Source: Escherichia coli
GTDB taxonomy: Bacteria; Pseudomonadota; Gammaproteobacteria; Enterobacterales; Enterobacteriaceae
Reading direction: 5' to 3' (one strand)
Assembly (NCBI RefSeq): GCF_044324785.1
Contig: NZ_CP172127.1
DNA: 64,000 nt
A program made the translations under genes and the position numbers. Of this stretch, positions 1-64,000 are shown in pieces (position 1 is the stretch's first letter; each line of letters opens with the position of its first letter). The notes beneath the pieces were generated by a model that saw nothing but the letters and a program-made list of their open reading frames with translations, did not search any database and was not told the origin of the DNA.

Positions 1-54
1 GTTTGAGCAGGCAATAAGTCCGGACGGGTATTTACCGCAGTCCGGACTTATTTT

Positions 55-1308
55 TCAGGCGTGCAGACGACGATGCAAACGCGTCCCGACCAGCAGAGCA
101 ATGACCAGCATCAGAGCAATAAATGCGCCGACGCCGTTCCAGCCATAGTTATGCCAGAAAACACCACCCAGCGTCCCGGCAATACTCGACCCCAGATAGT
201 AACTGAACAGATAGAGCGAGGAGGCCTGGCCTTTAGCGCGTTTTGCGCGGGGGCCGATCCAGCTGCTGGCTACTGAGTGGGCTGCGAAGAATCCGGCTGA
301 GAAGAGTAACATTCCGGCAAAGATCAGCCACAGCGAGCTGAATAAGGTCATCAGTAAACCAAACAGCATAACCCCCGTCGAAAACAACATCACCGGACCG
401 CGTCCATAGCGGGTGGTCATGGTTCCGGCTTTGGGTGAGCTCCATGTACCGGTCAAATAAGCCAGCGATAATAAGCCAACCACGGCCTGACTGACATGCC
501 AGGGGGAGAGCATCAACCGATAGCCGATGTAATTAAACAGCGTGACGAACGACCCCATCAGCAAAAAGCCTTCTGCGAACAATAACGGTAATCCCCGGTC
601 ACGCCAGTGCAGACGAAAGTTGATAAATAACGTCTTTGGTCGCAGGGAAGTCGGGCGAAAATGGCGTGATTCCGGGAGGATTTTCCAGAACATCAACGCC
701 GAGGCCAGCGCGAAACAGCCGATAGCCGCCAGAGCAATTCGCCAGTTGAAAAAGTCCGTGAAGACACCGCTAATTAAGCGTCCGCTCATGCCGCCAATTG
801 AGTTGCCGCTGATATACAACCCCATCGAAAAGGCCACGAAACTGGGGTGGATTTCCTCGCTAAGATAAGTCATGCCAACAGCTGCCACGCCACTTAACGA
901 AAGCCCAATCAAGGCGCGCATAATCAAAATGCCGTGCCAGCTGGTCATCATTGTCGAAAGTAACGTACAAATGGAGGCCAACAGTAGCGCCGTGACCATC
1001 ACTGGTTTGCGACCAATGGCATCGGATAGCGGGCCAGTAAACAGCAAACCGATAGCCAACATCGCCGTGGAAATGGACAGTGAAATACTACTGTTCGCGG
1101 GCGTTAAGCCAAACTCTTGTGAAAGCACCGGAAGGATAGGTTGCACACAATAGAGAAGTGCGAAGGTTGCCAGTCCGGCAGAGAACAGCGCCAGGGTGAC
1201 GCGCATAAATTGCGGCGTACCGCGTTTAATAAATTGATTTGGCTGAGAAATGCTTTGCTTGTCAGTGTCGCTTGCCGGAGCGCCATCAACAGTTGTAGTA
1301 CGGCTCAC
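55..1308 (-). CDS. ynfM: MFS-family inner membrane transporter
   Basis: 417-aa ORF, multiple hydrophobic helices, matches recalled YnfM; conserved position next to ynfL. Confidence 0.9.
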   Translation of the reverse strand: MSRTTTVDGAPASDTDKQSISQPNQFIKRGTPQFMRVTLALFSAGLATFALLYCVQPILPVLSQEFGLTPANSSISLSISTAMLAIGLLFTGPLSDAIGRKPVMVTALLLASICTLLSTMMTSWHGILIMRALIGLSLSGVAAVGMTYLSEEIHPSFVAFSMGLYISGNSIGGMSGRLISGVFTDFFNWRIALAAIGCFALASALMFWKILPESRHFRPTSLRPKTLFINFRLHWRDRGLPLLFAEGFLLMGSFVTLFNYIGYRLMLSPWHVSQAVVGLLSLAYLTGTWSSPKAGTMTTRYGRGPVMLFSTGVMLFGLLMTLFSSLWLIFAGMLLFSAGFFAAHSVASSWIGPRAKRAKGQASSLYLFSYYLGSSIAGTLGGVFWHNYGWNGVGAFIALMLVIALLVGTRLHRRLHA

Positions 1309-10454: not shown

Positions 10455-10511
10455 TACTCACTTATTGCTTTTCAAACAAAATGTCATGCCAGAATTTATG
10501 GTTGTAGTGGG

Positions 10512-13549: not shown

Positions 13550-14260
13550 GTGAAATACAAATTACTGCCATGCTTACTCGCGATATTCCTCACAGGATGT
13601 GACCGCACAGAGGTAACACTTTCATTTACCCCTGAGATGGCCAGTTTCTCTAATGAATTCGATTTTGATCCGCTGCGTGGTCCGGTAAAAGATTTCACTC
13701 AGACATTAATGGATGAGCAAGGTGAAGTGACGAAACGTGTTTCTGGGACTTTGTCGGAAGAAGGCTGTTTTGATTCACTCGAATTACTGGATCTGGAAAA
13801 TAATACCGTGGTCGCTCTGGTACTGGACGCCAATTATTACCGTGATGCCGAGACGCTGGAGAAGAGAGTACGTTTACAGGGAAAATGCCAGCTAGCGGAA
13901 TTACCTTCTGCCGGGGTGAGCTGGGAAACCGATGATAATGGCTTCGTGATTAAAGCCAGCAGCAAACAGATGCAGATGGAATATCGCTATGATGATCAGG
14001 GTTATCCACTGGGTAAAACCACGAAAAGTAACGACAAAACATTATCTGTCAGCGCCACGCCATCAACGGACCCGATCAAAAAATTAGATTACACAGCGGT
14101 TACTTTACTGAATAATCAAAGGGTTGGTAATGTAAAACAGAGCTGTGAATATGACAGTCACGCCAATCCGGTGGACTGTCAGCTAATCATTGTTGATGAA
14201 GGAGTAAAACCCGCCGTCGAACGGGTTTACACCATCAAAAATACTATCGATTATTATTAA
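13550..14260 (+). CDS. ynfC: UPF0257-type lipoprotein
   Basis: Lipobox LLPCLLAIFLTGC; probable GTG start giving 236 aa. Confidence 0.8.
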   Translation: MKYKLLPCLLAIFLTGCDRTEVTLSFTPEMASFSNEFDFDPLRGPVKDFTQTLMDEQGEVTKRVSGTLSEEGCFDSLELLDLENNTVVALVLDANYYRDAETLEKRVRLQGKCQLAELPSAGVSWETDDNGFVIKASSKQMQMEYRYDDQGYPLGKTTKSNDKTLSVSATPSTDPIKKLDYTAVTLLNNQRVGNVKQSCEYDSHANPVDCQLIIVDEGVKPAVERVYTIKNTIDYY

Positions 14261-14262
14261 TG

Positions 14263-14823
14263 CTATTGTGCGGTCGGCTTCAGGAGAGTCTGACCCGGTA
14301 TTTTGTGCTCTGCCAGATACTGATGCTGGAATATGCACATGCGAATGGCATTCCGATATTGACCATTAATAAAGAACTCATGCATCAATTCACCTTCAAC
14401 CGTAAAGCCAAGCTTGCGGTAAATGTGAATCGCTTTTTCATTCTCTTTATCGACGATCAGATACAGCTTATAGAGATTGAGAACGGTGAAGCCATAGTCC
14501 ATTGCTAATTTTGCGGCACGCGTTGCCAGACCTTTCCCCTGATATTCCGGGGAGATAATTATCTGAAATTCTGCGCGGCGATGAACATGGTTAATTTCCA
14601 CCAGCTCCACCAGACCGGCTTTTTCGCCGTCACATTCCACCACAAAGCGCCGTTCGCTCTGATCGTGAATATGCTTATCGTACAGATCAGAGAGTTCAAC
14701 AAAGGCTTCGTAGGGTTCCTCAAACCAGTAACGCATCACACTGGCGTTATTGTCGAGTTGATGTACATAGCGTAAATCTTCACGCTCCAGCGGGCGTAGC
14801 TTAACACTGTGGGCGCTTGGCAT
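14263..14823 (-). CDS. speG: spermidine N1-acetyltransferase
   Basis: 186-aa GNAT protein matching recalled SpeG. Confidence 0.95.
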
Positions 14824-14857
14824 AACGTGTCCTTACATTCCTTAAATCAATAACAGG

Positions 14858-15199
14858 TTAGGGGGTAATAACGCGGCCAGTTCGACGGTCCAGGCAGCGC
14901 AAAGTATTTGGCTCCCAGTAGGCATTGATGTTGGCGCTTTGCTCACATTTATCGCGGTTATCAAAAGCGGCGTCGGCTTTATCCCACTCTTTTTCAGTGC
15001 GTTTATTCACTTTCTGGCGCAGATTGCGCGTGTCATTCCATTGCTCTTTTTCCATAGCGGCGTGCTGGCGGCTTTGTGCACTGTCGCCAGACTCAATCAC
15101 CAGTTTGTTAGTTTCGGCATGAACAGTTGTGCTCAATGCCAGTGTGCAAGGCAGCAGAAAAGCGAGCAGGCCAATTCGTTTGCTGAGAGTAATTTTCAT
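14858..15199 (-). CDS. ynfB: UPF0482 secreted protein
   Basis: 113 aa with signal peptide, conserved position. Confidence 0.85.
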
Positions 15200-17091: not shown

Positions 17092-18111
17092 ATGAAAAGC
17101 ATTTTAATTGAAAAACCGAATCAACTGGCAATTATCGAACGCGAAATACCCACCCCGTCAGCGGGTGAAGTACGAGTAAAAGTGAAACTTGCCGGAATTT
17201 GTGGTTCAGATAGCCATATTTATCGTGGGCATAATCCTTTTGCGAAATATCCGCGCGTCATTGGTCATGAATTCTTTGGCGTCATTGATGCAGTGGGTGA
17301 AGGCGTGGAAAGCGACAGAGTCGGTGAACGCGTTGCTGTCGATCCGGTGGTCAGCTGTGGGCATTGCTATCCGTGCTCTATAGGTAAGCCGAACGTTTGT
17401 ACGACACTGGCTGTATTAGGTGTGCACGCTGACGGTGGTTTCAGTGAATATGCCGTGGTGCCGGCAAAAAATGCGTGGAAAATTCCTGAAGCAGTGGCCG
17501 ATCAATATGCGGTGATGATCGAACCTTTTACCATTGCGGCTAACGTTACCGGTCATGGTCAACCGACTGAAAATGATACCGTTCTGGTTTACGGCGCAGG
17601 TCCAATCGGCCTGACGATCGTTCAGGTATTAAAAGGCGTCTATAACGTTAAGAATGTGATTGTTGCCGATCGCATTGATGAACGACTGGAAAAAGCGAAA
17701 GAGAGCGGGGCAGACTGGGCGATTAATAACAGCCAGACACCGCTTGGCGAGATTTTCGCTGAAAAAGGCATAAAGCCGACATTAATTATCGATGCGGCTT
17801 GTCATCCTTCAATCCTGAAAGAAGCCGTAACGCTGGCTTCTCCAGCGGCACGTATTGTATTGATGGGCTTCTCCAGTGAACCGTCTGAAGTGATTCAGCA
17901 AGGAATTACCGGAAAAGAACTCTCTATTTTCTCTTCACGCTTAAATGCAAATAAATTCCCGGTCGTTATCGACTGGTTAAGTAAAGGGTTAATTAAACCA
18001 GAAAAACTAATTACCCATACGTTTGATTTCCAGCATGTTGCTGATGCCATTAGTTTATTTGAACAGGATCAAAAGCATTGCTGCAAAGTCTTACTCACTT
18101 TTTCTGAATAA
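17092..18111 (+). CDS. rspB: zinc-dependent alcohol dehydrogenase family protein RspB
   Basis: 339 aa from MKSILIEK, MDR zinc-ADH motifs (GICGSD, GHE), overlaps the rspA stop. Confidence 0.9.
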   Translation: MKSILIEKPNQLAIIEREIPTPSAGEVRVKVKLAGICGSDSHIYRGHNPFAKYPRVIGHEFFGVIDAVGEGVESDRVGERVAVDPVVSCGHCYPCSIGKPNVCTTLAVLGVHADGGFSEYAVVPAKNAWKIPEAVADQYAVMIEPFTIAANVTGHGQPTENDTVLVYGAGPIGLTIVQVLKGVYNVKNVIVADRIDERLEKAKESGADWAINNSQTPLGEIFAEKGIKPTLIIDAACHPSILKEAVTLASPAARIVLMGFSSEPSEVIQQGITGKELSIFSSRLNANKFPVVIDWLSKGLIKPEKLITHTFDFQHVADAISLFEQDQKHCCKVLLTFSE

Positions 18112-19937: not shown

Positions 19938-20282
19938 TTAAGAATCAGCCTGACTCGGGATCAGTTTTTGCCAGATAACTGAAACGTATTTTGCCTGGTA
20001 ACGGGCGTCATCAAGTGCATTATGGCGCTCACCTTCGAATGGAATAGCCGTTCTGGCATCGAAGTCTATGGCTTTCCCCAGCTCAACGATTGTGCGTACA
20101 TCGCGATCGTTGTAGTAACGCCACGGGCAGGGGATCCCCTGCCGTTCGTATGAACGGCGCAAAATCGTGTTGTCGAAGTTGGCTCCATTTCCCCAAACCT
20201 GAACAAAAAATTCACCGGAGTTTTCGTCGATAAATTCCCGCAATTGTAACAGTGCATCATCTAACGGGATTTCATCGGTCAT
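19938..20282 (-). CDS. C-terminal part of a split DEDDh 3-5 exonuclease (Exo II and Exo III motifs)
   Basis: WGNGANFD and HNALDDARY motifs; start overlaps the upstream stop as ATGA; the Exo I motif is in the preceding ORF. Confidence 0.7.
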   Translation of the reverse strand: MTDEIPLDDALLQLREFIDENSGEFFVQVWGNGANFDNTILRRSYERQGIPCPWRYYNDRDVRTIVELGKAIDFDARTAIPFEGERHNALDDARYQAKYVSVIWQKLIPSQADS

Positions 20283-22411
20283 AATGGCCGATTGCGCTTC
20301 GCGTGATTGCTCTTAAGCCACCATTTAATGGTGTCCCGATCAATGACTCCGCCAGCAGTTTCCAGATCGATAGTCTTACTAAATTCCGGTCCCATATCTC
20401 CGGTTTGCGGATCGAAAAATATTGCACCTATTGAGATGATCGGGGCATCAGGATTTTTTCCCATGGTTTCAAGGTCGATCATTAGATGGTCACACGTCCT
20501 GCTGGTGGATGTGATTTCGTGATGACCGTTCACCTTAATTGAGTGATCTGCCGTCTCGCCAGTTTCATTATCGCTATCGTGATGCTGATTGCCGCCAGCG
20601 TTCTCCTTGTGTGGATGTTCAGCGCCTTCCATTTCCTCCGGATCATCTTCCTGAACTTCAACCTGATACTCTTCATCGAATGTTTCTTGGTATGTTGCGT
20701 CGCCCATCACCGCGCCACAATCAGGGCAGTTGCCGCCGCCGGTCTGACCGCAAGCGGTGCAGACTTTTTCCACTTCCTGTTGCGCCACTGATTCAGGCTG
20801 TTTCGTTTCTGGCTCGTTTTGTAACGCATTTGGGCTGTTTTGTTCCGCTTTTTGGTAGTTCCGTTCCGATTCATGCTGGTTCTGGTTCACAGAATCGCGG
20901 GTCTGGATCCCCTTAACCCATTTCGGATCATTCGGGTCACTAATCCCTTCAACAAATTCACCACGTGATGCAGCAAGCAACTTATCGGCGTCAGGCTGGC
21001 TGATATTGGCTGCCTGCATAATTTTGTTTACTTCGTCAGCGGTAACTTTTATCGGCTCTGGTTGTTCTGAATCTTCAGCGGTATCTACATTTTGCGGTAA
21101 GCCCGTGTATGTGCCATTTTTTCGGGCAAAATATTCTTCTTTTGTGATTTCAGTGGCGCCAGCAGCCAGTGCCTTATCCAGACCAGAAAGTTTGTTTGCG
21201 CGACCGTATTTTTCTCCGTCCTTATCTGCGAAGAGGAAATAGAACGGCCCCTCACGCTCTACAGATGGTTCAGCTTCCGGTGCGGTTTCATTTTTTGGGA
21301 TATCAGATACCTCAGTTTCCACTGCATCAGTTTGTGTTTCTGATGACTTGAGAACATCAACAGTGCCCAGGTCTGTTTCTTCATTCTCAAACACGCCCTT
21401 TGTCGTCAGGTATTCGCAGATATATTTGTTCAGTGCTACGGGATCTTTGTGAATGTCGATCGGACGCTCACGGACAAGGCCAAAAATAGTTTGGCGGTCG
21501 TAGCGAAGGGCATCAGGCTGTTTGCGTATTGATGCCGAGATACGCTTCCAGTCTTCGCGGTCGTTGTCGATAACTTCATTTTTTGCCCAGCGATGGATGC
21601 TGCCGTCAATGTTTCCGGCATCCACATCACCAGGCCAGAGAGCGTAGGCCAGTTCGTCATCCAGTGTTTTCCATGTCTGCTTGTATTCGCGATGAATGGC
21701 AGCAATGACCGGGCTGATTTTTCCTGTTGAATTTTCAGTGTACTGTTGATTGGCTCTGGCGCGGGCGAGATCAACAACAGACGTGTATTTTCCGGTTTCC
21801 TTGCGTTCACCTTCGCGACGTTTTTTCCAGATGCGCATCTCTGCCTGAATTTCGGGCCATTTAGCACCAGGAATACATTTATGCTTAACCCACCCAATGG
21901 CGTGCAACTTAAGCTCCGGATACATGGCGTTAACTTCTGGCATTTTCATCAACGCTTCAACGATATGTCCGTTGAATGTTGCCATGTCTTCCTGCAACAA
22001 TTCCTGTGCGCTAATAACCATATCAACGGTGATGTTTTCACATGTGTCGAACTTAACCATGACAGCGTTCTGTACTTCAGGGGCCAGCTTGTCAAAAGTG
22101 ACGTTCATCGGATCGGATTCAGTCTCAACCGGGACAAAAGAAGCAGACTCCTCATCCCAGCGGTTTTCCTGCATATATTCAGCATCCCATGAATCGAGGG
22201 CAGGGCGGGGTATACCAGGTTTATCCTCGCAGACAATAAATTTATAAGCGCAGTCCTGAGCAGCCGGATAATGTTCCAGGAATTGCCAGTGAAATTTTGC
22301 TCGAGCACGGCGTTCGTCGCCAGCTTCAATGGCTGTGGCTACAGCCACAGCGCCTTCTTCCCTTGTTGCCAGTTCGTCAGGAATAGCGGCGCAAATAAAG
22401 ACTTTACTCAT
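20279..22411 (-). CDS. prophage exonuclease, N-terminal 710 aa (RecE/exodeoxyribonuclease VIII position) ending in an Exo I motif
   Basis: 710-aa ORF with acidic low-complexity middle, Cys4 zinc-ribbon (CTACGQTGGGNCPDCG) and C-terminal MIDLETMG motif. Confidence 0.7.
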   Translation of the reverse strand: MSKVFICAAIPDELATREEGAVAVATAIEAGDERRARAKFHWQFLEHYPAAQDCAYKFIVCEDKPGIPRPALDSWDAEYMQENRWDEESASFVPVETESDPMNVTFDKLAPEVQNAVMVKFDTCENITVDMVISAQELLQEDMATFNGHIVEALMKMPEVNAMYPELKLHAIGWVKHKCIPGAKWPEIQAEMRIWKKRREGERKETGKYTSVVDLARARANQQYTENSTGKISPVIAAIHREYKQTWKTLDDELAYALWPGDVDAGNIDGSIHRWAKNEVIDNDREDWKRISASIRKQPDALRYDRQTIFGLVRERPIDIHKDPVALNKYICEYLTTKGVFENEETDLGTVDVLKSSETQTDAVETEVSDIPKNETAPEAEPSVEREGPFYFLFADKDGEKYGRANKLSGLDKALAAGATEITKEEYFARKNGTYTGLPQNVDTAEDSEQPEPIKVTADEVNKIMQAANISQPDADKLLAASRGEFVEGISDPNDPKWVKGIQTRDSVNQNQHESERNYQKAEQNSPNALQNEPETKQPESVAQQEVEKVCTACGQTGGGNCPDCGAVMGDATYQETFDEEYQVEVQEDDPEEMEGAEHPHKENAGGNQHHDSDNETGETADHSIKVNGHHEITSTSRTCDHLMIDLETMGKNPDAPIISIGAIFFDPQTGDMGPEFSKTIDLETAGGVIDRDTIKWWLKSNHAKRNRPL

Positions 22412-29764: not shown

Positions 29765-30821
29765 GGCTTTGTTGAATAAATCAGATTTCGGGTAAGTCTC
29801 CCCCGTAGCGGGTTGTGTTTTCAGGCAATACGCACGCTTTCAGGCATACCTGCTTTCGTCATTTTGTTCAGCGCTCGTACCAGGGCCATAGCCTCCGCAA
29901 CCTGACCATCGTAGTCACGCAGCGTCAGTGAACCCCCGAACAGCTGTTTTACCCGGTACATCGCCGTTTCCGCTATCGAGCGACGGTTGTAATCTGTTGT
30001 CCATTTCCACCGCGCATTACTCCCGGTCATTCGCTGATTAGCCACTGCACGGTTACGGTCTGCATATTCACCGGGCCAGTAACCCGCACCTTTTCGGGGA
30101 GGGATAAGCGCGCTGATTTTCTTACGCCGCAGTTCATCGTGACATAGCCGGGTATCGTAAGCGCCATCGGCGGCGGCTGACCTGATTTTCCGGTGGGTTT
30201 GCCGGATTAACCCGGGGAAGGCCTCTGAGTCCGTAACGTTGTTCAGCGACAGGTCAGCGCAGATGATTTCATGTGTTTTACTGTCAACGGCGAGATGCAG
30301 CTTACGCCAGATACGGCGGCGTTCCTGGCCATGCTTTTTGACTTTCCACTCGCCTTCACCGAAGACCTTCAGCCCGGTGGAATCAATTACCAGGTGTGCG
30401 ATTTCACCCCGGGTGGGCGTTTTGAAACTGACATTAACCGACTTTGCCCGCCTGCTGACACAGCTGTAATCCGGGCAGCGTAGCGGAACGTTCATCAGAG
30501 AAAAAATGGAATCAATAAAGCCCTGCGCAGCCCGCAGGGTCAGCCTGAATACGCGTTTAATGACCAGCACAGTAGTGATGGCAAGGTCAGAATAGCGCTG
30601 AGGTCTGCCTCGTGAAGAAGGTGTTGCTGACTCATACCAGGCCTGAATAGCTTCATCATCCAGCCAGAAAGTTATGGAGCCACGGTTGATGAGGGCTTTA
30701 TTGTAGGTGGGCCAGTTGGTGATTTTGAACTTTTGCTTTGCCACGGAACGGTCTGCGTTGTCGGGAAGATACGTGATCTGATCCTTCAACTCAGCAAAAG
30801 TTCGATTTATTCAACAAAGCC
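29765..30821 (-). mobile_element. IS903-group insertion sequence (IS5 family), 1057 bp
   Basis: Perfect 18-bp terminal inverted repeats GGCTTTGTTGAATAAATC, 1057-bp length and 9-bp duplication typical of IS903/IS102. Confidence 0.9.
29821..30744 (-). CDS. IS903-type DDE transposase
   Basis: ORF inside the IS with DDE residues and YREK-like signature; probable GTG start giving 307 aa. Confidence 0.85.
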   Translation of the reverse strand: MAKQKFKITNWPTYNKALINRGSITFWLDDEAIQAWYESATPSSRGRPQRYSDLAITTVLVIKRVFRLTLRAAQGFIDSIFSLMNVPLRCPDYSCVSRRAKSVNVSFKTPTRGEIAHLVIDSTGLKVFGEGEWKVKKHGQERRRIWRKLHLAVDSKTHEIICADLSLNNVTDSEAFPGLIRQTHRKIRSAAADGAYDTRLCHDELRRKKISALIPPRKGAGYWPGEYADRNRAVANQRMTGSNARWKWTTDYNRRSIAETAMYRVKQLFGGSLTLRDYDGQVAEAMALVRALNKMTKAGMPESVRIA

Positions 30822-30830
30822 CCTACAGGC
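30822..30830. repeat. 9-bp target site duplication (CCTACAGGC), right copy
   Basis: Direct repeat of 29756-29764. Confidence 0.8.
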
Positions 30831-52370: not shown

Positions 52371-54942
52371 ACCGGTAGGCGATCTGGTCGTTGATTTAAG
52401 TCTGGATGCGGCCAGATTTGACGAGCAGATGGCCAGAGTCAGGCGTCATTTTTCCGGTACGGAAACTGATGCGAAAAAAACAGCGGCAGTCGTTGAACAG
52501 TCGCTGAGCCGACAGGCGCTGGCTGCACAGAAAGCGGGGATTTCCGTCGGGCAGTATAAAGCCGCCATGCGTATGCTGCCTGCACAGTTCACCGACGTGG
52601 CCACGCAGCTTGCAGGCGGGCAAAGTCCGTGGCTGATCCTGCTGCAACAGGGTGGTCAGGTTAAGGACTCCTTCGGCGGGATGATCCCCATGTTCAGGGG
52701 GCTTGCCGGTGCGATCACCCTGCCGATGGTGGGGGCCACCTCGCTGGCGGTGGCGACCGGTGCGCTGGCGTATGCCTGGTATCAGGGCAACTCAACCCTG
52801 TCCGATTTCAACAAAACGCTGGTCCTTTCCGGCAATCAGGCGGGACTGACGGCAGATCGTATTCTGGCCCTGTCCAGAGCCGGGCAGGCGGCAGGGCTGA
52901 CGTTTAACCAGACCAGCGAGTCACTGACGGCGCTGGTGAATGCCGGTGTGCGTGGTGGTGAGCAGTTTGAGGCGATCAGCCAGAGTGTGGCGCGTTTCTC
53001 CTCTGCATCCGGCGTGGAGGTGGACAAGGTCGCTGAAGCCTTCGGGAAGCTGACCACAGACCCGACGTCGGGACTGACAGCGATGGCACGTCAGTTCCAT
53101 AACGTGACGGCGGAGCAGATTGCGTATGTTGCTCAGTTGCAGCGTTCCGGAGATGAAGCCGGGGCATTGCAGGCGGCGAACGAGGCCGCAACGAAAGGGT
53201 TTGATGACCAGACCCGCCGCCTGAAAGAGAACATGGGCACGCTGGAGACCTGGGCAGACAGGACAGCACGGGCATTCAAATCCATGTGGGATTCGGTGCT
53301 GGATATTGGTCGCCCGGACACTGCCCAGGGAATGCTGGAGAAAGCAGAAAAGGCTTTTGATGAGGCGGACAAAAAATGGCAGTGGTATCAGAGCCGAAGC
53401 CACCGGCGCGGTAAAACCTCAGCATTTCTTGCCAATCTCCGGGGAGCATGGGAGGACAGAGCGAATGCGCAACTTGGGCTTTCAGCCGCCACGTTGCAGG
53501 CCGATCTTGAAAAGGCCAGAGAGATGGCAGCAAAGGACTGGGCCGAGTCTGAGGCATCACGGCTGAAATATACCGAAGAGGCGCAGAAGGCTTACGAACG
53601 CCTGCAGACGCCGCTGGAGAAATATACCGCCCGTCAGGAAGAACTGAACAAGGCACTGAAAGACGGGAAAATCCTGCAGGCAGATTACAACACGCTGATG
53701 GCGGCGGCGAAAAAGGATTATGAAGCGACGCTGAAAAAGCCGAAACAGTCCGGCGTGAAAGTGTCTGCGGGCGATCGTCAGGAAGACAGTGCTCATGCTG
53801 CCCTGCTGACGCTTCAGGCTGAACTCCGGACGCTGGAGAAGCATGCCGGAGCAAATGAGAAAATCAGCCAGCAGCGCCGGGATTTGTGGAAGGCGGAGAG
53901 TCAGTTCGCGGTACTGGAGGAGGCGGCGCAACGTCGCCAGCTGTCCGCACAGGAGAAATCCCTGCTGGCGCATAAAGATGAGACGCTGGAGTACAAACGC
54001 CAGCTGGCTGCACTTGGCGACAAGGTTACGTATCAGGAGCGCCTGAACGCGCTGGCGCAGCAGGCGGATAAGTTCGCACAGCAACAACGGGCAAAACGGG
54101 CAGCCATTGAGGCGAAAAACCGGGGGCTTACTGACCGGCAGGCAGCGCGGGAAGCCACAGAACAGCGCCTGAAGGAACAGTATGGCGATAATTCGCTGGC
54201 GCTGAATAACGTCATGTCAGAGCAGAAAAAGACCTGGGCGGCTGAAGACCAGCTTCGCGGGAGCTGGATGGCAGGCCTCAGGTCCGGCTGGAGTGAGTGG
54301 GAAGAGAGCGCCACGGACAGTATGTCGCAGGTTAAAAGTGCAGCCACGCAGACCTTTGATGGTATTGCGCAGAATATGGCGGCGATGCTGACCGGCAGTG
54401 AGCAGAACTGGCGCAGCTTCACCCGTTCCGTGCTGTCCATGATGACAGAAATTCTGCTTAAGCAGGCAATGGTGGGGATTGTCGGGAGTATCGGTAGCGC
54501 CATTGGCGGGGCTGTTGGTGGCGGCGCATCCGCATCAGGCGGTACAGCCATTCAGGCAGCTGCGGCGAAATTCCATTTTGCAACCGGAGGATTTACGGGA
54601 ACCGGCGGCAAATATGAGCCAGCGGGGATTGTTCACCGTGGTGAATTTGTCTTCACGAAGGAGGCAACCAGCCGAATTGGTGTCGGCAACCTGTACCGCC
54701 TGATGCGGGGCTATGCGGAAGGTGGTTATGTGGGCGGTGCCGGAAGTCCGGCGCAGATGCGGCGGGCTGAAGGCATTAATTTTAATCAGAACAATCACGT
54801 GGTGATTCAGAACGACGGTACGAATGGTCTGCCAGGTCCACAGATGATGAAGGCAGTGTATGACATGGCCCGCAAGGGTGCCCGTGATGAAATTCAGGCA
54901 CAGATGCGCGATGGTGGTCTGTTCTCCGGAGGTGGACGATGA
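52363..54942 (+). CDS. H: tail tape measure protein gpH
   Basis: 859 aa starting MAEPVGDLVVDLSLDAARFDEQ, coiled-coil rich, Gly-rich C-terminal part. Confidence 0.9.
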   Translation: MAEPVGDLVVDLSLDAARFDEQMARVRRHFSGTETDAKKTAAVVEQSLSRQALAAQKAGISVGQYKAAMRMLPAQFTDVATQLAGGQSPWLILLQQGGQVKDSFGGMIPMFRGLAGAITLPMVGATSLAVATGALAYAWYQGNSTLSDFNKTLVLSGNQAGLTADRILALSRAGQAAGLTFNQTSESLTALVNAGVRGGEQFEAISQSVARFSSASGVEVDKVAEAFGKLTTDPTSGLTAMARQFHNVTAEQIAYVAQLQRSGDEAGALQAANEAATKGFDDQTRRLKENMGTLETWADRTARAFKSMWDSVLDIGRPDTAQGMLEKAEKAFDEADKKWQWYQSRSHRRGKTSAFLANLRGAWEDRANAQLGLSAATLQADLEKAREMAAKDWAESEASRLKYTEEAQKAYERLQTPLEKYTARQEELNKALKDGKILQADYNTLMAAAKKDYEATLKKPKQSGVKVSAGDRQEDSAHAALLTLQAELRTLEKHAGANEKISQQRRDLWKAESQFAVLEEAAQRRQLSAQEKSLLAHKDETLEYKRQLAALGDKVTYQERLNALAQQADKFAQQQRAKRAAIEAKNRGLTDRQAAREATEQRLKEQYGDNSLALNNVMSEQKKTWAAEDQLRGSWMAGLRSGWSEWEESATDSMSQVKSAATQTFDGIAQNMAAMLTGSEQNWRSFTRSVLSMMTEILLKQAMVGIVGSIGSAIGGAVGGGASASGGTAIQAAAAKFHFATGGFTGTGGKYEPAGIVHRGEFVFTKEATSRIGVGNLYRLMRGYAEGGYVGGAGSPAQMRRAEGINFNQNNHVVIQNDGTNGLPGPQMMKAVYDMARKGARDEIQAQMRDGGLFSGGGR

Positions 54943-55268
54943 AGACCTTCCGCTGGAAAGTGAAACCCGGTATGGATGTGGCTTCGGCCCCTTCCGTCAG
55001 GAAAGTGCGCTTTGGTGATGGCTATTCCCAGCGAGCGCCTGCCGGGCTGAATGCCGACCTGAAAACGTACAGCGTGACGCTTTCTGTTCCCCGTTGGGAG
55101 GCCACGGCGCTGGAGTCGTTTCTGGCTGAGCACGGGGGCTGGAAAGCCTTTCTGTGGACGCCGCCTTATGAGTGGCGGCAGATAAAGGTGACCTGCGCAA
55201 AATGGTCGTCGCGGGTCAGTATGCTGCGTGTTGAGTTCAGCGCAGAGTTTGAACAGGTGGTGAACTGA
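54939..55268 (+). CDS. M: tail tip protein gpM
   Basis: 109-aa ORF in lambda order. Confidence 0.9.
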   Translation: MKTFRWKVKPGMDVASAPSVRKVRFGDGYSQRAPAGLNADLKTYSVTLSVPRWEATALESFLAEHGGWKAFLWTPPYEWRQIKVTCAKWSSRVSMLRVEFSAEFEQVVN

Positions 55269-55966
55269 TGCAGGATATCCGGCAGGAAACACTGAATGAA
55301 TGCACCCGTGCGGAGCAGTCGGCCAGCGTGGTGCTCTGGGAAATCGACCTGACAGAGGTCGGTGGAGAACGTTATTTTTTCTGTAATGAGCAGAACGAAA
55401 AAGGTGAGCCGGTCACCTGGCAGGGGCGACAGTATCAGCCGTATCCCATTCAGGGGAGTGGTTTTGAACTGAATGGCAAAGGCACCAGTACGCGCCCCAC
55501 ACTGACGGTTTCTAACCTGTACGGTATGGTCACCGGGATGGCGGAAGATCTGCAGAGTCTGGTCGGTGGAACGGTGGTCCGGCGTAAGGTTTACGCCCGT
55601 TTTCTGGATGCGGTGAACTTCGTCAACGGAAACAGTGGCGCCGATCCGGAGCAGGAGGTGATCAGCCGCTGGCGCATTGAGCAGTGCAGCGAACTGAGCG
55701 CGGTGAGTGCCTCTTTTGTACTGTCCACGCCGACGGAAACGGATGGCGCTGTTTTTCCGGGACGTATCATGCTGGCCAACACCTGCACCTGGACCTATCG
55801 CGGTGACGAGTGCGGTTATAGCGGTCCGGCTGTCGCGGATGAATATGACCAGCCAACGTCCGATATCACGAAGGATAAATGCAGCAAATGCCTGAGCGGT
55901 TGTAAGTTCCGCAATAACGTCGGCAACTTTGGCGGCTTCCTTTCCATTAACAAACTTTCGCAGTAA
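55268..55966 (+). CDS. L: tail tip protein gpL
   Basis: 232-aa ORF in lambda order. Confidence 0.9.
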   Translation: MQDIRQETLNECTRAEQSASVVLWEIDLTEVGGERYFFCNEQNEKGEPVTWQGRQYQPYPIQGSGFELNGKGTSTRPTLTVSNLYGMVTGMAEDLQSLVGGTVVRRKVYARFLDAVNFVNGNSGADPEQEVISRWRIEQCSELSAVSASFVLSTPTETDGAVFPGRIMLANTCTWTYRGDECGYSGPAVADEYDQPTSDITKDKCSKCLSGCKFRNNVGNFGGFLSINKLSQ

Positions 55967-55971
55967 ATCCC

Positions 55972-56715
55972 ATGACACAGACAGAATCAGCGATTCTGGC
56001 GCACGCCCGGCGATGTGCGCCAGCGGAGTCGTGCGGCTTCGTGGTAAGCACGCCGGAGGGGGAAAGATATTTCCCCTGCGTGAATATCTCCGGTGAGCCG
56101 GAGGCGTATTTCCGTATGTCGCCGGAAGACTGGCTGCAGGCAGAAATGCAGGGTGAGATTGTGGCGCTGGTCCACAGCCACCCCGGTGGTCTGCCCTGGC
56201 TGAGTGAGGCCGACCGGCGGCTGCAGGTGCAGAGTGATTTGCCGTGGTGGCTGGTCTGCCGGGGGACGATTCATAAGTTCCGCTGTGTGCCGCATCTCAC
56301 CGGGCGGCGCTTTGAGCACGGTGTGACGGACTGTTACACACTGTTCCGGGATGCTTATCATCTGGCGGGGATTGAGATGCCGGACTTTCATCGTGAGGAT
56401 GACTGGTGGCGTAACGGCCAGAATCTCTATCTGGATAATCTGGAGGCGACGGGGCTGTATCAGGTGCCGTTGTCAGCGGCACAGCCGGGCGATGTGCTGC
56501 TGTGCTGTTTTGGTTCATCGGTGCCGAATCACGCCGCAATTTACTGCGGCGACGGCGAGCTGCTGCACCATATTCCTGAACAACTGAGCAAACGAGAGAG
56601 GTACACCGACAAATGGCAGCGACGCACACACTCCCTCTGGCGTCACCGGGCATGGCGCGCATCTGCCTTTACGGGGATTTACAACGATTTGGTCGCCGCA
56701 TCGACCTTCGTGTGA
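55972..56715 (+). CDS. K: tail tip assembly protein gpK (JAB/MPN plus NlpC/P60-like)
   Basis: HSHP metal-binding motif and Cys/His peptidase-like region; 3-prime end overlaps I. Confidence 0.85.
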   Translation: MTQTESAILAHARRCAPAESCGFVVSTPEGERYFPCVNISGEPEAYFRMSPEDWLQAEMQGEIVALVHSHPGGLPWLSEADRRLQVQSDLPWWLVCRGTIHKFRCVPHLTGRRFEHGVTDCYTLFRDAYHLAGIEMPDFHREDDWWRNGQNLYLDNLEATGLYQVPLSAAQPGDVLLCCFGSSVPNHAAIYCGDGELLHHIPEQLSKRERYTDKWQRRTHSLWRHRAWRASAFTGIYNDLVAASTFV

Positions 56716-57284
56716 AAACGGGGGCTGAAGCCATCCGGGCACTGGCCACACAGCTCCCGGCGTTTCGTCAGAAACTGAGCGACGGCTGGTATCAGGTACG
56801 GATTGCCGGGCGGGACGTCAGCACGTCCGGGTTAACGGCGCAGTTACATGAGACTCTGCCTGATGGCGCTGTGATTCATATTGTTCCCAGAGTCGCCGGG
56901 GCCAAGTCAGGTGGCGTATTCCAGATTGTCCTGGGGGCTGCCGCCATTGCCGGATCATTCTTTACCGCCGGAGCCACCCTTGCAGCATGGGGGGCAGCCA
57001 TTGGGGCCGGTGGTATGACCGGCATCCTGTTTTCTCTCGGTGCCAGTATGGTGCTCGGTGGTGTGGCGCAGATGCTGGCACCGAAAGCCAGAACTCCCCG
57101 TACACAGACAACGGATAACGGTAAGCAGAACACCTATTTCTCCTCACTGGATAACATGGTTGCCCAGGGCAATGTTCTGCCTGTTCTGTACGGGGAAATG
57201 CGCGTGGGGTCACGCGTGGTTTCTCAGGAGATCAGCACGGCAGACGAAGGGGACGGTGGTCAGGTTGTGGTGATTGGTCGCTGA
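56613..57284 (+). CDS. I: tail assembly protein gpI
   Basis: 223 aa with ubiquitin-like N-terminus and Gly/Ala-rich hydrophobic segment. Confidence 0.9.
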   Translation: MAATHTLPLASPGMARICLYGDLQRFGRRIDLRVKTGAEAIRALATQLPAFRQKLSDGWYQVRIAGRDVSTSGLTAQLHETLPDGAVIHIVPRVAGAKSGGVFQIVLGAAAIAGSFFTAGATLAAWGAAIGAGGMTGILFSLGASMVLGGVAQMLAPKARTPRTQTTDNGKQNTYFSSLDNMVAQGNVLPVLYGEMRVGSRVVSQEISTADEGDGGQVVVIGR

Positions 57285-57344
57285 TGCAAAATGTTTTATG
57301 TGAAACCGCCTGCGGGCGGTTTTGTCGTTTATGGAGCGTGAGGA

Positions 57345-60300
57345 ATGGGTAAAGGAAGCAGTAAGGGGCATACCCCGCGCGAAGCGAAGGACAACCTGAA
57401 GTCCACGCAGTTGCTGAGTGTGATTGATGCCATCAGTGAAGGGCCGATTGAAGGTCCGGTGGATGGATTAAAAAGCGTGCTGCTGAACAGTACGCCGGTG
57501 CTGGACAGTGATGGGAATACCAACATCGCCGGTGTCACGGTGGTGTTCCGGGCTGGTGAGCAGGAGCAGACTCCGCCGGAGGGATTTGAATCCTCCGGCT
57601 CCGAGACGGTGTTGGGTACGGAAGTGAAATACGACACGCCGATCACCCGCGCCATCACGTCGGCAAACATCGACCGACTGCGCTTTACCTTCGGTGTGCA
57701 GGCACTGGTGGAAACCACCTCAAAGGGGGACCGGAATCCGTCGGAAGTTCGCCTGCTGGTTCAGATACAGCGTAATGGTGGCTGGGTGACGGAAAAAGAC
57801 ATCACCATTAAGGGCAAAACCACCTCGCAGTATCTGGCCTCGGTGGTGGTGGATAACCTGCCGCCGCGCCCGTTTAATATCCGGATGCGCAGAATGACGC
57901 CGGACAGCACCACAGACCAGCTGCAGAACAAAACGCTCTGGTCGTCATACACCGAAATCATCGATGTGAAACAGTGCTACCCGAACACGGCACTGGTCGG
58001 CGTGCAGGTGGACTCGGAACAGTTCGGCAGCCAGCAGGTGAGCCGTAATTATCATCTTCGCGGGCGCATTCTGCAGGTGCCGTCGAACTATAACCCGCAG
58101 ACGCGGCAATACAGCGGTATCTGGGACGGAACGTTTAAGCCAGCATACAGCAACAACATGGCCTGGTGTCTGTGGGATATGCTGACCCATCCGCGCTACG
58201 GCATGGGGAAGCGTCTCGGTGCGGCGGATGTGGACAAATGGGCGCTGTATGTCATCGGCCAGAATTGCGACCAGTCGGTGCCGGATGGCTTTGGTGGCAC
58301 GGAGCCGCGCATCACCTGTAATGCCTGGCTGACCACACAGCGCAAGGCGTGGGATGTTCTCAGTGATTTCTGCTCGGCGATGCGCTGTATGCCGGTATGG
58401 AACGGGCAGACGCTGACGTTCGTGCAGGACCGACCGTCGGATAAGGTGTGGACCTATAACTGCAGTAATGTGGTGATGCCGGATGATGGCGCGCCGTTCC
58501 GCTACAGCTTCAGTGCCCTGAAGGACCGTCATAATGCCGTTGAGGTGAACTGGATTGACCCGGATAACGGCTGGGAGACGGCGACAGAGCTTGTTGAAGA
58601 TACGCAGGCCATTCTCCGTTACGGTCGTAACGTCACGAAGATGGATGCCTTTGGCTGTACCAGCCGGGGGCAGGCGCACCGCGCCGGGCTGTGGTTGATT
58701 AAAACGGAACTACTGGAAACGCAGACCGTGGACTTCAGCGTGGGGGCGGAAGGGCTTCGCCATGTGCCGGGCGATGTCATTGAAATCTGCGATGATGACT
58801 ATGCGGGGATCAGCACCGGCGGGCGCGTGCTGGCGGTGAACAGCCAGACCCGGACGCTGACGCTCGACCGTGAAATCACGCTGCCATCCTCCGGTACCAC
58901 GCTGATAAGCCTGGTTGACGGAAGTGGCAATCCGGTCAGCGTGGAGGTCCAGTCCGTCACCGACGGCGTGAAGGTAAAAGTGAGCCGTGTTCCTGACGGC
59001 GTTGCCGGATACAGCGTATGGGGGCTGAAGCTGCCGACGCTGCGCCAGCGCCTGTTCCGCTGCGTGAGTATCCGTGAGAACGACGACGGCACGTATGCCA
59101 TCACCGCCGTGCAGCATGTACCGGAAAAAGAAGCTATCGTGGATAACGGGGCGCACTTTGACGGCGACCAGAGCGGCACGGTGAATGGTGTCACGCCGCC
59201 AGCAGTGCAGCACCTGACTGCCGAAGTCACCGCAGACAGCGGGGAGTATCAGGTACTGGCCCGCTGGGACACGCCGAAGGTGGTGAAGGGCGTGAGTTTC
59301 ATGCTTCGCCTGACCGTAACAGCGGATGACGGCAGTGAGCGGCTGGTCAGCACGGCCCGGACGACGGAAACCACTTACCGCTTCACACAACTGGCTCTGG
59401 GGAACTACAGGCTGACAGTCCGGGCAGTAAATGCGTGGGGGCAGCAGGGCGATCCGGCGTCGGTATCGTTCCGGATTGCCGCACCGGCAGCGCCGTCGCG
59501 GATTGAGCTGACGCCGGGCTATTTTCAGATAACCGCCACGCCGCATCTTGCGGTTTATGATCCGACGGTACAGTTTGAGTTCTGGTTCTCGGAAAAGCGG
59601 ATTGCGGATATCAGGCAGGTTGAAACCAGCGCGCGTTATCTTGGTACGGCACTGTACTGGATAGCCGCCAGTATCAATATCAAACCGGGCCATGATTATT
59701 ATTTTTACGTTCGCAGTGTGAACACCGTTGGCAAATCGGCATTCGTGGAGGCTGTCGGTCAGCCGAGTGATGATGCATCAGGCTATCTGGATTTTTTCAA
59801 AGGCGAGATAGGGAAAACCCATCTGGCTCAGGAGCTGTGGACGCAGATTGATAACGGTCAGCTTGCGCCTGACCTGACTGAAATCAGGACGTCCATAACG
59901 GATGTCAGCAATGAAATAACACAGACCGTCAATAAGAAACTGGAAGACCAGAGTGCAGCGATCCAGCAGATACAGAAGGTTCAGGTTGATACAAATAATA
60001 ACCTGAACAGCATGTGGGCAGTGAAGCTGCAGCAGATGCAGGACGGACGCCTTTATATTGCGGGTATCGGTGCCGGTATTGAGAACACCCCTGACGGCAT
60101 GCAGAGTCAGGTGCTGCTGGCGGCGGACAGGATTGCGATGATTAATCCTGCAAATGGCAACACAAAACCGATGTTTGTTGGTCAGGGTGATCAGATATTC
60201 ATGAATGACGTGTTCCTGAAACGCCTGACGGCTCCCACCATTACCAGCGGTGGAAATCCGCCGGCATTTTCCCTGACACCGGACGGAAAGCTGACCGCTA

Positions 60301-60842
60301 AAAATGCGGATATCAGTGGCAGTGTGAATGCGAACGCCGGGACGCTCAACAATGTCACGGTAAATGAAAACTGTACGATTAAGGGCATGCTGGAGGCGAC
60401 TCAGGTCAGAGGTGACTTCGTTAAAGCTGTATCCAAATCATTCCCGAAACAGGCTGGTACGTGGGGTAATACGGAAACACCAAACGGGACGGTTACAGTC
60501 ACCATCAGCGATGATCATAACTTTGACCGTCAAATCATTATTCCGCCCATTATCTTTAACGGAATAGCGTATAGCGATCCGGGAAGTGGTAATAACCCGG
60601 GAGGTACAAGATACACGGGTTATGGTTTTGAAGTTCGCAAAAACGGCGTATTAATCGCATCCAGAGAAACTAAAGGGGCCATTCCCGGTAGTTACAGTGC
60701 AGTTATTGATATGCCGAGTGGCAGGGGAAGCGTCACTCTGGAGTTTAAGATTTTCCAGAAAGGCAATCAGGGGGCAGGCAATATCACCGACTGTACGGTG
60801 ATTGTGACCAAAAAAGCCGCTTCCGGCATCAGTATTCGTTGA
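57345..60842 (+). CDS. J: central tail fiber / host specificity protein gpJ
   Basis: 1165 aa; N-terminal about 800 aa match recalled lambda J, C-terminal region differs. Confidence 0.9.
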
Positions 60843-60864
60843 AATATTTATAACCCCAATAAAG

Positions 60865-60888
60865 GGCGTCAGGAATGACGCCTTTTTT
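60865..60888 (+). terminator. intrinsic terminator after J
   Basis: ggcgtca-ggaa-tgacgcc hairpin followed by T6. Confidence 0.6.
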
Positions 60889-60912
60889 ATTGCAGAAAAG
60901 CGAGAGGTAATT

Positions 60913-61512
60913 ATGCGTAAAGTTTGTGCAGCAATTTTGTCCGCAGCCATTTGTCTGGCCGTATCCGGTGCGCCTGCATGGGCGTCTGAACATCAGTCCA
61001 CGCTGAGCGCGGGGTATCTTCATGCCTCGACGAACGTCCCCGGCAGTGATGATCTGAACGGGATTAACGTGAAATACCGTTATGAGTTTACGGACACACT
61101 GGGGCTGGTGACGTCATTCAGCTATGCAGGAGACAAGAATCGCCAGCTGACCCGTTACAGCGATACCCGCTGGCATGAAGATTCCGTTCGTAACCGCTGG
61201 TTCAGCGTAATGGCGGGGCCGTCTGTGCGCGTGAATGAATGGTTCAGCGCGTATGCGATGGCGGGTGTGGCTTACAGCCGTGTGTCGACTTTCTCCGGGG
61301 ATTATCTTCGCGTAACTGACAACAAGGGGAAAAAGCACGATGTGCTGACCGGAAGTGATGACGGTCGCCACAGCAACACGTCTCTGGCGTGGGGGGCTGG
61401 CGTGCAGTTTAACCCGACCGAATCCGTGGCCATTGATATTGCTTATGAAGGCTCCGGCAGTGGTGACTGGCGCACTGACGGTTTCATCGTGGGTGTCGGT
61501 TATAAATTCTGA
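60913..61512 (+). CDS. lom: Lom-like outer membrane beta-barrel protein (Ail/OmpX family)
   Basis: 199 aa with signal peptide and C-terminal aromatic GVGYKF. Confidence 0.85.
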   Translation: MRKVCAAILSAAICLAVSGAPAWASEHQSTLSAGYLHASTNVPGSDDLNGINVKYRYEFTDTLGLVTSFSYAGDKNRQLTRYSDTRWHEDSVRNRWFSVMAGPSVRVNEWFSAYAMAGVAYSRVSTFSGDYLRVTDNKGKKHDVLTGSDDGRHSNTSLAWGAGVQFNPTESVAIDIAYEGSGSGDWRTDGFIVGVGYKF

Positions 61513-61576
61513 TTAGCCAGGTAACACAGTGTTATGACAGCCCGCCGGTTCAGGTGGGCTTTTTTGTGGGGTGAAT

Positions 61577-64000
61577 ATGGCAGTAAAGATTTCAGGTGTA
61601 CTGAAAGACGGCACAGGAAAACCGGTACAGAACTGCACAATCCAGCTGAAAGCAAAACGTAACAGCACCACGGTGGTGGTAAACACGCTGGCCTCAGAAA
61701 ATCCGGATGAAGCCGGGCGTTACAGCATGGACGTTGAGTACGGGCAGTACAGCGTTATTCTGTTGGTGGAGGGATTCCCGCCGTCACATGCCGGGACCAT
61801 CACCGTGTATGAAGATTCCCGACCCGGTACGCTGAATGATTTTCTCGGTGCCATGACGGAGGATGATGCCCGTCCTGAGGCACTGCGCCGTTTTGAACTG
61901 ATGGTGGAAGAGGTGGCGCGTAACGCGTCCGCGGTGGCACAGAACACGGCAGCCGCGAAGAAGTCAGCCAGCGATGCCGGCACATCAGCACGTGAGGCGG
62001 CAACCCATGCGACTGATGCTGCAGGCTCAGCACGCGCAGCCAGCACGTCAGCCGGACAGGCCGCGTCGTCGGCTCAGTCAGCATCTTCCAGCGCAGGAAC
62101 GGCATCAACAAAGGCCAGTGAAGCATCGAAAAGTGCTGCTGCTGCAGAGTCCTCAAAAAGCGCGGCAGCTACCAGTGCCGCTGCGGCGAAAACGTCAGAA
62201 ACGAATGCGGCAGCGTCACAACAATCAGCAGCCACTTCTGCATCCGCCGCGACCACGAAGGCGTCAGAAGCTGCCACCTCAGCCCGGGATGCGGCGGCCT
62301 CAAAAGAGGCGGCAAAATCATCAGAAACGAGCGCAGCCTCGAGCGCCAGTAGTGCAGCCTCCTCGGCAACAGCGGCAGGAAATTCCGCGAAGGCGGCAAA
62401 AACGTCCGAGACGAACGCTAAGTCTTCTGAGACGGCAGCAGCACAGAGTGCCTCCGCAGCAGCAGACTCAAAAACAGCGGCTGCCTCATCTGCCAGCGCC
62501 GCGTCAACAAATGCCGGGCAGGCCTCAGCCAGTGCCACCGCCGCCGGAAAATCGGCAGAAAGTGCTGCATCGTCCGCTTCAACAGCCACAACGAAGGCTG
62601 GCGAAGCCGCTGTACAGGCCAGCGCAGCAGCGAGGTCTGCTTCCGCAGCGAAGACATCCGAGACGAACGCGAAAGCGTCGGAAACCAGCGCAGAATCCTC
62701 AAAAACGGCTGCCGCATCGTCCGCCAGTTCGGCGGCGTCATCGGCATCATCTGCGTCTGCTTCAAAAGATGAGGCGACCAGACAAGCGTCCGCAGCGAAG
62801 GGCAGCGCCACGACAGCATCCACGAAGGCGACAGAGGCAGCTGGCAGTGCGACGGCGGCAGCACAGAGCAAAAGTACGGCGGAATCCGCGGCAACGCGCG
62901 CCGAGACAGCGGCAAAACGGGCAGAGGATATTGCATCCGCCGTGGCGCTTGAGGATGCGAGCACGACGAAAAAGGGGATAGTACAGCTCAGCAGTGCGAC
63001 CAACAGCACTTCCGAGTCACAGGCGGCAACGCCAAAAGCCGTTAAGGCCGCGTATGACCTGGCTAACGGGAAATACACCGCACAGGACGCTACGACAGCA
63101 CAAAAAGGAATTGTCCAGCTCAGTAGTGCAACCAACAGCACATCTGAAACGCTTGCTGCGACACCGAAAGCAGTGAAAGCAGCTAATGACAATGCGAATG
63201 GTCGGGTACCTTCTGCCCGTAAGGTGAATGGTAAGGCGCTTTCAGCGGATATAACACTGACGCCGAAAGATATTGGTACGCTTAACTCAACAACAATGTC
63301 ATTCAGCGGTGGTACTGGTTGGTTCAAATTAGCAACGGTAACCATGCCACAGGCGAGTTCTGTTGTTTCAATTACGTTGATTGGTGGCGCTGGATTTAAC
63401 GTGGGGTCACCTCAACAGGCAGGTATATCTGAACTTGTTTTACGTGCAGGTAATGGTAATCCGAAGGGGATTACTGGTGCTTTATGGCAGCGCACATCGA
63501 CAGGGTTTACAAATTTTGCCTGGGTCAATACATCTGGTGATACTTACGATATTTACGTTGCAATCGGAAATTATGCGACTGGTGTAAATATTCAATGGGA
63601 TTATACCAGTAATGCCAGCGTGACGATTCATACGTCACCAGCATATTCTGCTAATAAGCCGGAAGGGTTAACGGACGGTACAGTTTATTCACTCTATACG
63701 CCATCAGAGCAGTTTTATCCGCCTGGCGCACCAATCCCGTGGCCATCAGATACCGTTCCGTCTGGCTATGCCCTGATGCAGGGGCAGACTTTTGACAAAT
63801 CTGCATACCCGAAACTTGCAGCCGCTTATCCGTCAGGCGTGATCCCTGATATGCGTGGCTGGACGATTAAGGGCAAACCTGCCAGTGGTCGGGCCGTATT
63901 GTCTCAGGAACAGGACGGCATTAAATCGCATACCCACAGCGCCAGCGCATCCAGTACGGATTTGGGGACGAAAACCACATCGTCGTTTGATTACGGCACT
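61577..64000 (+). CDS. stf: side tail fiber protein, 5-prime partial (continues past window end)
   Basis: Starts [26 protein letters not shown], long Ala/Ser-rich repeat region, then tail-fiber repeat motifs; no stop before 64000. Confidence 0.8.

Follow-up and report, generated by a model that had tools for sequence, protein, structure and literature searches.

The window analysed here, a 64,000-nt stretch of Escherichia coli DNA, carries a prophage at the Qin locus, between rspB and ydfJ. This prophage is a full-length relative of K-12 Qin, with dicA, dicB, dicC, relBE, hokD and csp accompanied by lambda-like head and tail genes. Gene J belongs to a lambda tail set, in which H, M, L, K and I lie upstream and a lom-like gene and stf downstream, and the gene order around it is collinear with lambda, 434, 21 and the PGAP annotation of strain IAI1 (Table 1). 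A profile search scored J at 2331.7 bits against NCBIfam NF049904 (lambda_TipJ; cut-off 1950), with a match that runs end to end, from J residues 1-1165 to profile positions 1-1163 of 1163. Six Pfam gpJ domains occur in the order characteristic of the gpJ family, all with E <= 3e-25. By family score, domain order and synteny alike, J is a lambda-type tail tip attachment protein.

Table 1. Gene J, its domains and modules, and the downstream features in the window (nt, nucleotides of the window; aa, residues of J).
Feature	Position (nt)	J residues (aa)	Strand	Basis or remark
Gene J, central tail fibre / tail-tip attachment protein	57345-60842		+	ORF, 1165 aa
Pfam FNIII-A_GpJ		86-207		
Pfam Phage-tail_3		330-498		
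Pfam Ig_J		610-714		
Pfam Ig_J_second		716-818		
Pfam Phage_Tail_Tip		872-1000		
Pfam Ig_GpJ_C (PF12421), "C-terminal receptor binding domain"		1029-1164		E = 3e-25
Common lambdoid N-terminal part, hub domains and two FNIII/Ig domains	57345-59759	1-805	+	alignment, Pfam
Phage-21-type module, putative alpha-helical shaft and upper beta-prism	59760-60164	806-940	+	alignment
Conserved linker, putative lower beta-prism	60165-60374	941-1010	+	87-90% aa identity to lambda, 434 and 21
434-type receptor-binding domain (predicted)	60375-60842	1011-1165	+	alignment, Pfam, AF2
lom-like outer-membrane beta-barrel gene, 434 type	60913-61512		+	protein identity
Terminator-like hairpin with trailing T run, downstream of lom	61539-61560		+	consensus scan only
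stf, side tail fibre gene, 5' part	61577-64000		+	open from ATG to window end, at least 808 codons

To characterize the composition of J, we aligned it with the J proteins of lambda (NC_001416), 434 (OL657226) and phage 21 (OL657228). The N-terminal 805 residues are nearly invariant among the four, with 97.5% identity to lambda (785/805, gap-free), 97.9% to 434 and 97.5% to phage 21, and this part of the gene has ~95% nucleotide identity and a GC content of 0.588. These values agree with the first-pass annotation, which had described roughly the first 800 residues as close to lambda J and had placed the onset of divergence at 59800; the break with lambda J falls at nt ~59760-59805, where the GC content drops from 0.588 to 0.48-0.51, and the mismatch rate relative to lambda changes from the N-terminal to the C-terminal part by far more than chance would give (Fisher p = 3e-69). 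The same annotation had described the last ~340 residues as different, which holds for residues 806-940 (50.5% identity to lambda and 28 inserted residues) and for the extreme C-terminus (residues 1011-1165, only 41% identical, with indels), but not for residues 941-1010 between them, which are 90% identical to lambda and reach 100% over residues 961-980. The original observation is thus partly confirmed, since there are two divergent modules with a conserved linker between them instead of one block; a pairwise alignment to lambda J had been proposed as its check, and that alignment reveals a diverged C-terminus and no near-identity there.

The two divergent modules have different closest relatives. 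Residues 806-940 match phage 21 J at 131 of 135 positions (97.0%, gap-free; 95.8% at the nucleotide level) and 434 J at ~51%, and this module is 28 residues longer than its counterparts in lambda and 434. Conversely, residues 1011-1165 match 434 J at 146 of 155 positions (94.2%, gap-free; 92.5% at the nucleotide level) and phage 21 J at 42%. Nucleotide collinearity of the window with phage 21 extends from 53651 to 60380 at 95.4% identity, while collinearity with 434 runs to 59841 and returns at 60011-61998. Based on these breakpoints, the 21-like and 434-like stretches join within the conserved linker (60165-60374), which is likely the site of the recombination that brought the modules together. 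The terms shaft, prism and tip are assignments that we infer from alignment to the lambda structure paper (PMC11101478). With that nomenclature, the alignments show J to be a natural four-part mosaic at the sequence level, composed of a lambdoid N-terminal body, a 21-type shaft, a conserved prism linker and a 434-type Ig-like tip.

To place this mosaic among its relatives, we surveyed complete E. coli genomes and phage records. The C-terminal region of J (nt 59760-60842, at least 80% covered) is present in 1163 of 5426 complete E. coli genomes, many of them 100% identical, as is that of strain IAI1 at the nucleotide level. The whole J gene is 95-96% identical at the nucleotide level in 15 phage records, including Ayreon, PhiR34_1, mEp332, cdtI, ev099 and phi458. 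The recorded host of Ayreon is K-12 and that of PhiR34_1 and mEp332 is K-12 MG1655; the siphovirus phi458 plaques on K-12 MC1061 (PMC9701743). These four are plaque formers with a K-12 host. The 434-type tip occurs more widely, at 90% or greater amino acid identity in 74 phage records, and in some of these, such as mEp460, Perceval, and Stx2c and Stx1a phages, it is paired with the shorter lambda/434-type shaft, indicating that the shaft and tip modules assort independently. The longer 21-type shaft works in phage 21 itself and in phages with the same J mosaic. The 434-type tip swap is common and already known, being present in annotated reference genomes and in cultured phages.

To examine the fold of the tip, we searched 1.84 billion representative proteins, which returned 145 hits that split into those with at least 90% and those with at most 52% identity, and used an alignment of 13 tip types from this search as input to AlphaFold2. 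The monomer model of residues 991-1165 has a mean pLDDT of 77.9. Its top Foldseek matches in the PDB are 8xck (lambda gpJ, closed), 9wcb (A8 gpJ with OmpC), 8xcj (lambda gpJ with LamB) and 9wca (A8 gpJ, closed), with E values from 1e-13 to 5e-15 and TMq of 0.67-0.68. This structure prediction, also proposed in the first-pass annotation, yields a fold that matches the solved gpJ tips; J is thus predicted, from a monomer model, to share their Ig-like fold. A solved receptor-binding domain of the 434 type was not found in the PDB. Relative to lambda, the indels of J fall at lambda positions 1011/1012, 1051/1052, 1078/1079 and ~1100-1114, and they coincide with all four indel hot spots described for natural J proteins at 1012, 1048, 1077 and 1107 (PMC6646904). 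Relative to 434, residues 1011-1165 contain nine substitutions, of which seven adjoin the indel-prone loops (Q1036K, A1037V, N1047D, S1077D, R1127G, Q1138H and G1143R).

We next consider which receptor this tip would recognize. The specificity region of lambda J spans residues 960-1132 (PMC6646904), and replacement of lambda gpJ from residue 964 with natural C-termini moves delivery from LamB to OmpC (PMC11338833); the joint of those chimeras aligns to residue 992 of the window J, within the conserved linker. Divergence from lambda is by itself insufficient to argue for a change of receptor, because the tip of phage 21 is equally diverged and its native receptor is LamB (PMC11336670). The case against LamB rests instead on the 94% identity to 434, a phage that uses OmpC (Hantke 1978, cited by bioRxiv 10.1101/2022.09.30.509847); lambda carrying the 434 fibre likewise binds OmpC (PMC3509688; PMC11101478). 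Among phage records, the 434-class tip is discrete, with relatives at 90% or greater amino acid identity and then nothing until below 45%. When compared with the lambda-type, LamB-binding tip, residues 1011-1165 are only 41% identical, with 17 gap columns at the four loop hot spots. Based on these comparisons, it appears most likely that the tip, within its four-part mosaic, docks as a trimer on trimeric OmpC instead of LamB. The first-pass annotation had proposed a changed host range from the C-terminus of J together with lom and a long stf; homology to 434 supports the part of this proposal that concerns a receptor other than LamB, while no supporting evidence was found for the role given to lom.

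Two further systems were considered in this context. The hybrid lambda h434 imm21 (record OM418627), which we mapped for its lambda/434 crossover, switches inside J at record positions 17619-17637 (~codon 705-711), indicating that a chimeric J with a lambda N-terminus and a 434 C-terminus is functional. Its 434 DNA goes on through lom and stf, so that the tip is not isolated in this hybrid, and we did not adopt it as a map of the OmpC determinant. Similarly, phi330, an OmpC-dependent EHEC siphophage, was considered as a carrier of the same tip and set aside as another type, given the 35-40% identity to 434 and lambda tips reported in the phi330 paper. For Ayreon, the PhiR phages, mEp332 and phi458, no receptor had been reported in the literature that we searched, nor did we find one for the other carriers of the mosaic, namely cdtI, ev099 and the IAI1 prophage. 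The SNIPE preprint uses PhiR phages, in passages that concern ManYZ and tape-measure dependence; the gpJ passages of a 2026 receptor-prediction preprint deal with Drexlerviridae and relatives, and the preprint mentions neither "lambdoid" nor "434".

The specificity of the tip may have no present consequence if the Qin-type prophage is defective and J a mere remnant that no longer serves any infection, a reading that we regard as doubtful but deserving of some weight. The window and E. coli IAI1 align collinearly, at 98.2-99.7% nucleotide identity, and the window has ~1 kb of extra DNA at ~29765-30822. In IAI1, the tail gene L and several genes of the early region are pseudogenes. These early-region pseudogenes, at the same Qin-locus site, suggest that the window copy may not produce virions. 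On the other hand, each of the tail genes H, M, L, K, I and J has an open frame in the window, L (55268-55966) included, and J itself is evidently conserved, with 4 nt different from IAI1 over 3498 nt and G258D as the sole amino acid difference from IAI1 WP_000515369.1. Moreover, this reading bears on the activity of the prophage and not on what the tip recognizes.

The remaining alternatives concern recognition itself. It seems unlikely that the allele range of J, while still of the OmpC class, has shifted from that of 434 or become wider, so as to take in other variants of OmpC or, for example, OmpF as an additional porin. Such a shift would fit the position of seven of the nine differences from 434 beside indel-prone loops, the behavior of A8 and 1A2, which both bind OmpC and accept different OmpC alleles (PMC11338833), and the finding that a single J mutation can add a receptor in phage 21 (PMC11336670); against it, PhiR26_1 and PhiR34_1, with tips 97-99% identical to that of the window, are recorded on K-12, as is 434. 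That the receptor is still LamB is highly improbable: phage 21, whose tip is ~42% identical to that of J and about as far from lambda, does provide a precedent (PMC11336670), but the J tip is 94.2% identical to that of the OmpC user 434 and only 41-42% identical to those of two LamB users, and the bimodal distribution of identities (at least 90% or below 45%) places it clearly in the 434 class.

With OmpC as the predicted receptor, we infer a triggering mechanism from the solved lambda-LamB and A8-OmpC structures. By analogy with these complexes, the J trimer would set its three tips onto the OmpC trimer. After docking, the tips would spread apart and the prism would twist; the helical shaft would then flip, the FNIII strings would detach, and the tail tube would open for DNA ejection.

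To complete the description of the locus, we examined the genes downstream of J. The lom product is identical to the 434 "Ail/PagC/OmpX porin" at 194 of 200 residues (97%) and to lambda Lom at 97 of 208 (47%). Its matches to the NCBIfam Ail/OmpX outer-membrane families fall below the curated cut-offs, and PGAP names the IAI1 copy "Ail/Lom family". The collinearity with 434 spans the tip, lom and the start of stf, and by this alignment lom is co-inherited with the 434-type tip. As a candidate host-range factor, lom was rejected, given its below-cut-off family matches and the lack of supporting evidence. 434 has an annotated terminator at the place equivalent to the hairpin that follows lom, and a promoter scan between J and stf found none above the shuffled expectation. 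In IAI1, the stf orthologue has 986 aa, and tfa and a pin-type recombinase come after it. It is rather improbable, in our estimate, that the OmpC-allele range or the trigger threshold differs from that of 434 through the nine substitutions or through the union of a 21-type shaft and a 434-type tip, or that the tip and lom are functionally coupled. Coupling of the latter kind, if true, would mean, for example, that a lysogen-side protection is tied to receptor class, as opposed to mere linkage.

Work on phage 434 goes back to the 1950s, and its receptor has been known since 1978. That J tips are exchanged at the conserved prism is likewise on record, and engineering already makes use of it. The value of the present assignment is one of annotation, as the label "434-type, predicted OmpC-dependent" can replace "lambda-like, LamB" for this prophage and for the roughly one fifth of complete E. 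coli genomes in which this C-terminal region of J recurs. The comparison also illustrates how poorly the receptor can be predicted from distance to lambda alone, since phage 21, equally diverged, is a LamB user.

Among known systems, 434 J (UMO75286.1) shares with the window J its tip (94.2%), which is the classical h434 host-range type, and its N-terminal 805 residues (97.9%); it differs in the shaft and upper prism (~51%, 28 residues shorter in 434) and by the nine tip substitutions. Phage 21 J (UMO75436.1) shows the converse pattern, sharing the shaft and upper prism (97%), including the 28 extra residues, and differing in the tip (42%); phage 21 is also without lom between J and stf. Lambda gpJ (NP_040600.1; 8IYK, 8XCK and 8XCJ) has the same family, domain order and synteny (H-M-L-K-I-J-lom-stf) and the predicted tip fold in common with the window J, but its tip is 41% identical with indels at four loops, and its shaft is 50% identical and 28 residues shorter. 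The engineered gpJ chimeras A8 and 1A2 follow the same principle, in which a natural tip joined in the prism turns specificity from LamB to OmpC (PMC11338833), although they carry other tip types and their shaft is lambda's own. A8 is the best PDB match to the J tip in both sequence and structure, yet it is 45-47% identical and resembles the tip of phage 21, so we rejected it as the same tip type; 1A2 was also rejected, as it reads as a third type ("DSRAPERWPSG") in a machine-read supplement that contains errors. The same mosaic of 21-type shaft and 434-type tip, with minor substitutions only, is found in Ayreon, cdtI, phi458, ev099, PhiR34_1, mEp332 and the IAI1 prophage.

The window carries a 434-like stretch at 60011-61998, with 91% nucleotide identity to phage 434, a classical lambdoid phage that uses OmpC; this stretch spans the 434-type tip (the C-terminal receptor-binding domain of tail protein J), the 434-type allele of lom, which encodes a putative outer-membrane beta-barrel, and the first ~420 nt of the side tail fibre gene, stf. 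The 434-type tip is present in 74 phage records, and in 67 matching records at least 80% of the equivalent 434 tip-lom-stf segment is covered. A comparison of these two counts indicates that the tip and the lom allele travel together, for which physical linkage may suffice.

KTSETNA-like units repeat within the Ala/Ser/Thr-rich portion of stf, where the GC content is 0.61-0.62 and the AT skew is ~0.4. Two long ORFs overlap stf in other frames (Table); they probably arise from the low-complexity stretch with its GC content and AT skew, and are likely spurious. In the closely collinear prophage of E. coli IAI1, the genes that lie past the window end (positions 13778-15041 of the IAI1 locus) are, after stf, a tail fibre assembly gene and then a pin-type recombinase gene (pinQ). 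This arrangement 3' of the IAI1 stf hints at an invertible side-fibre tip, which would be a second host-range switch located outside the window.

Features of the window (coordinates in nt)
Feature	Position	Strand	Description
Chromosomal genes	1-~18000		outside prophage
ynfE, ynfF	8028-12938		two tandem ORFs, 808 aa each
Prophage	~18300-64000		full-length, lambdoid; located at the site of Qin in K-12, flanked by rspB and ydfJ
ORF at place of IAI1 'exonuclease' gene	20279-22411	minus	710 aa
ORF in ~1 kb segment missing from IAI1	29821-30789	minus	322 aa, TTG start
Tail gene L	55268-55966		intact ORF, 232 codons
Low-complexity part of stf	61900-63000		long, Ala/Ser/Thr-rich, ~aa 115-470
Long ORF overlapping stf	61974-62981	plus	other frame, inside stf
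Long ORF overlapping stf	62074-63345	minus	other frame, inside stf

The window prophage, a relative of the K-12 element Qin, has dicA/dicB/dicC, relBE, hokD and cspB/F/I, and its lambda-like head and tail gene sets are complete. Positions 29765-30822 hold ~1 kb, possibly of insertion-element or moron origin, that is extra relative to the IAI1 prophage, which is elsewhere collinear. Across window positions 1-24230, identity to IAI1 is lower, at 98.2%, and the alignment opens 20 gaps. The 'exonuclease' gene of the IAI1 prophage encodes 823 aa, whereas the ORF at its place in this less similar part of the window is shorter, possibly reflecting a truncation or another start. Tail gene L, in turn, is annotated as frameshifted in IAI1 but is intact in the window.
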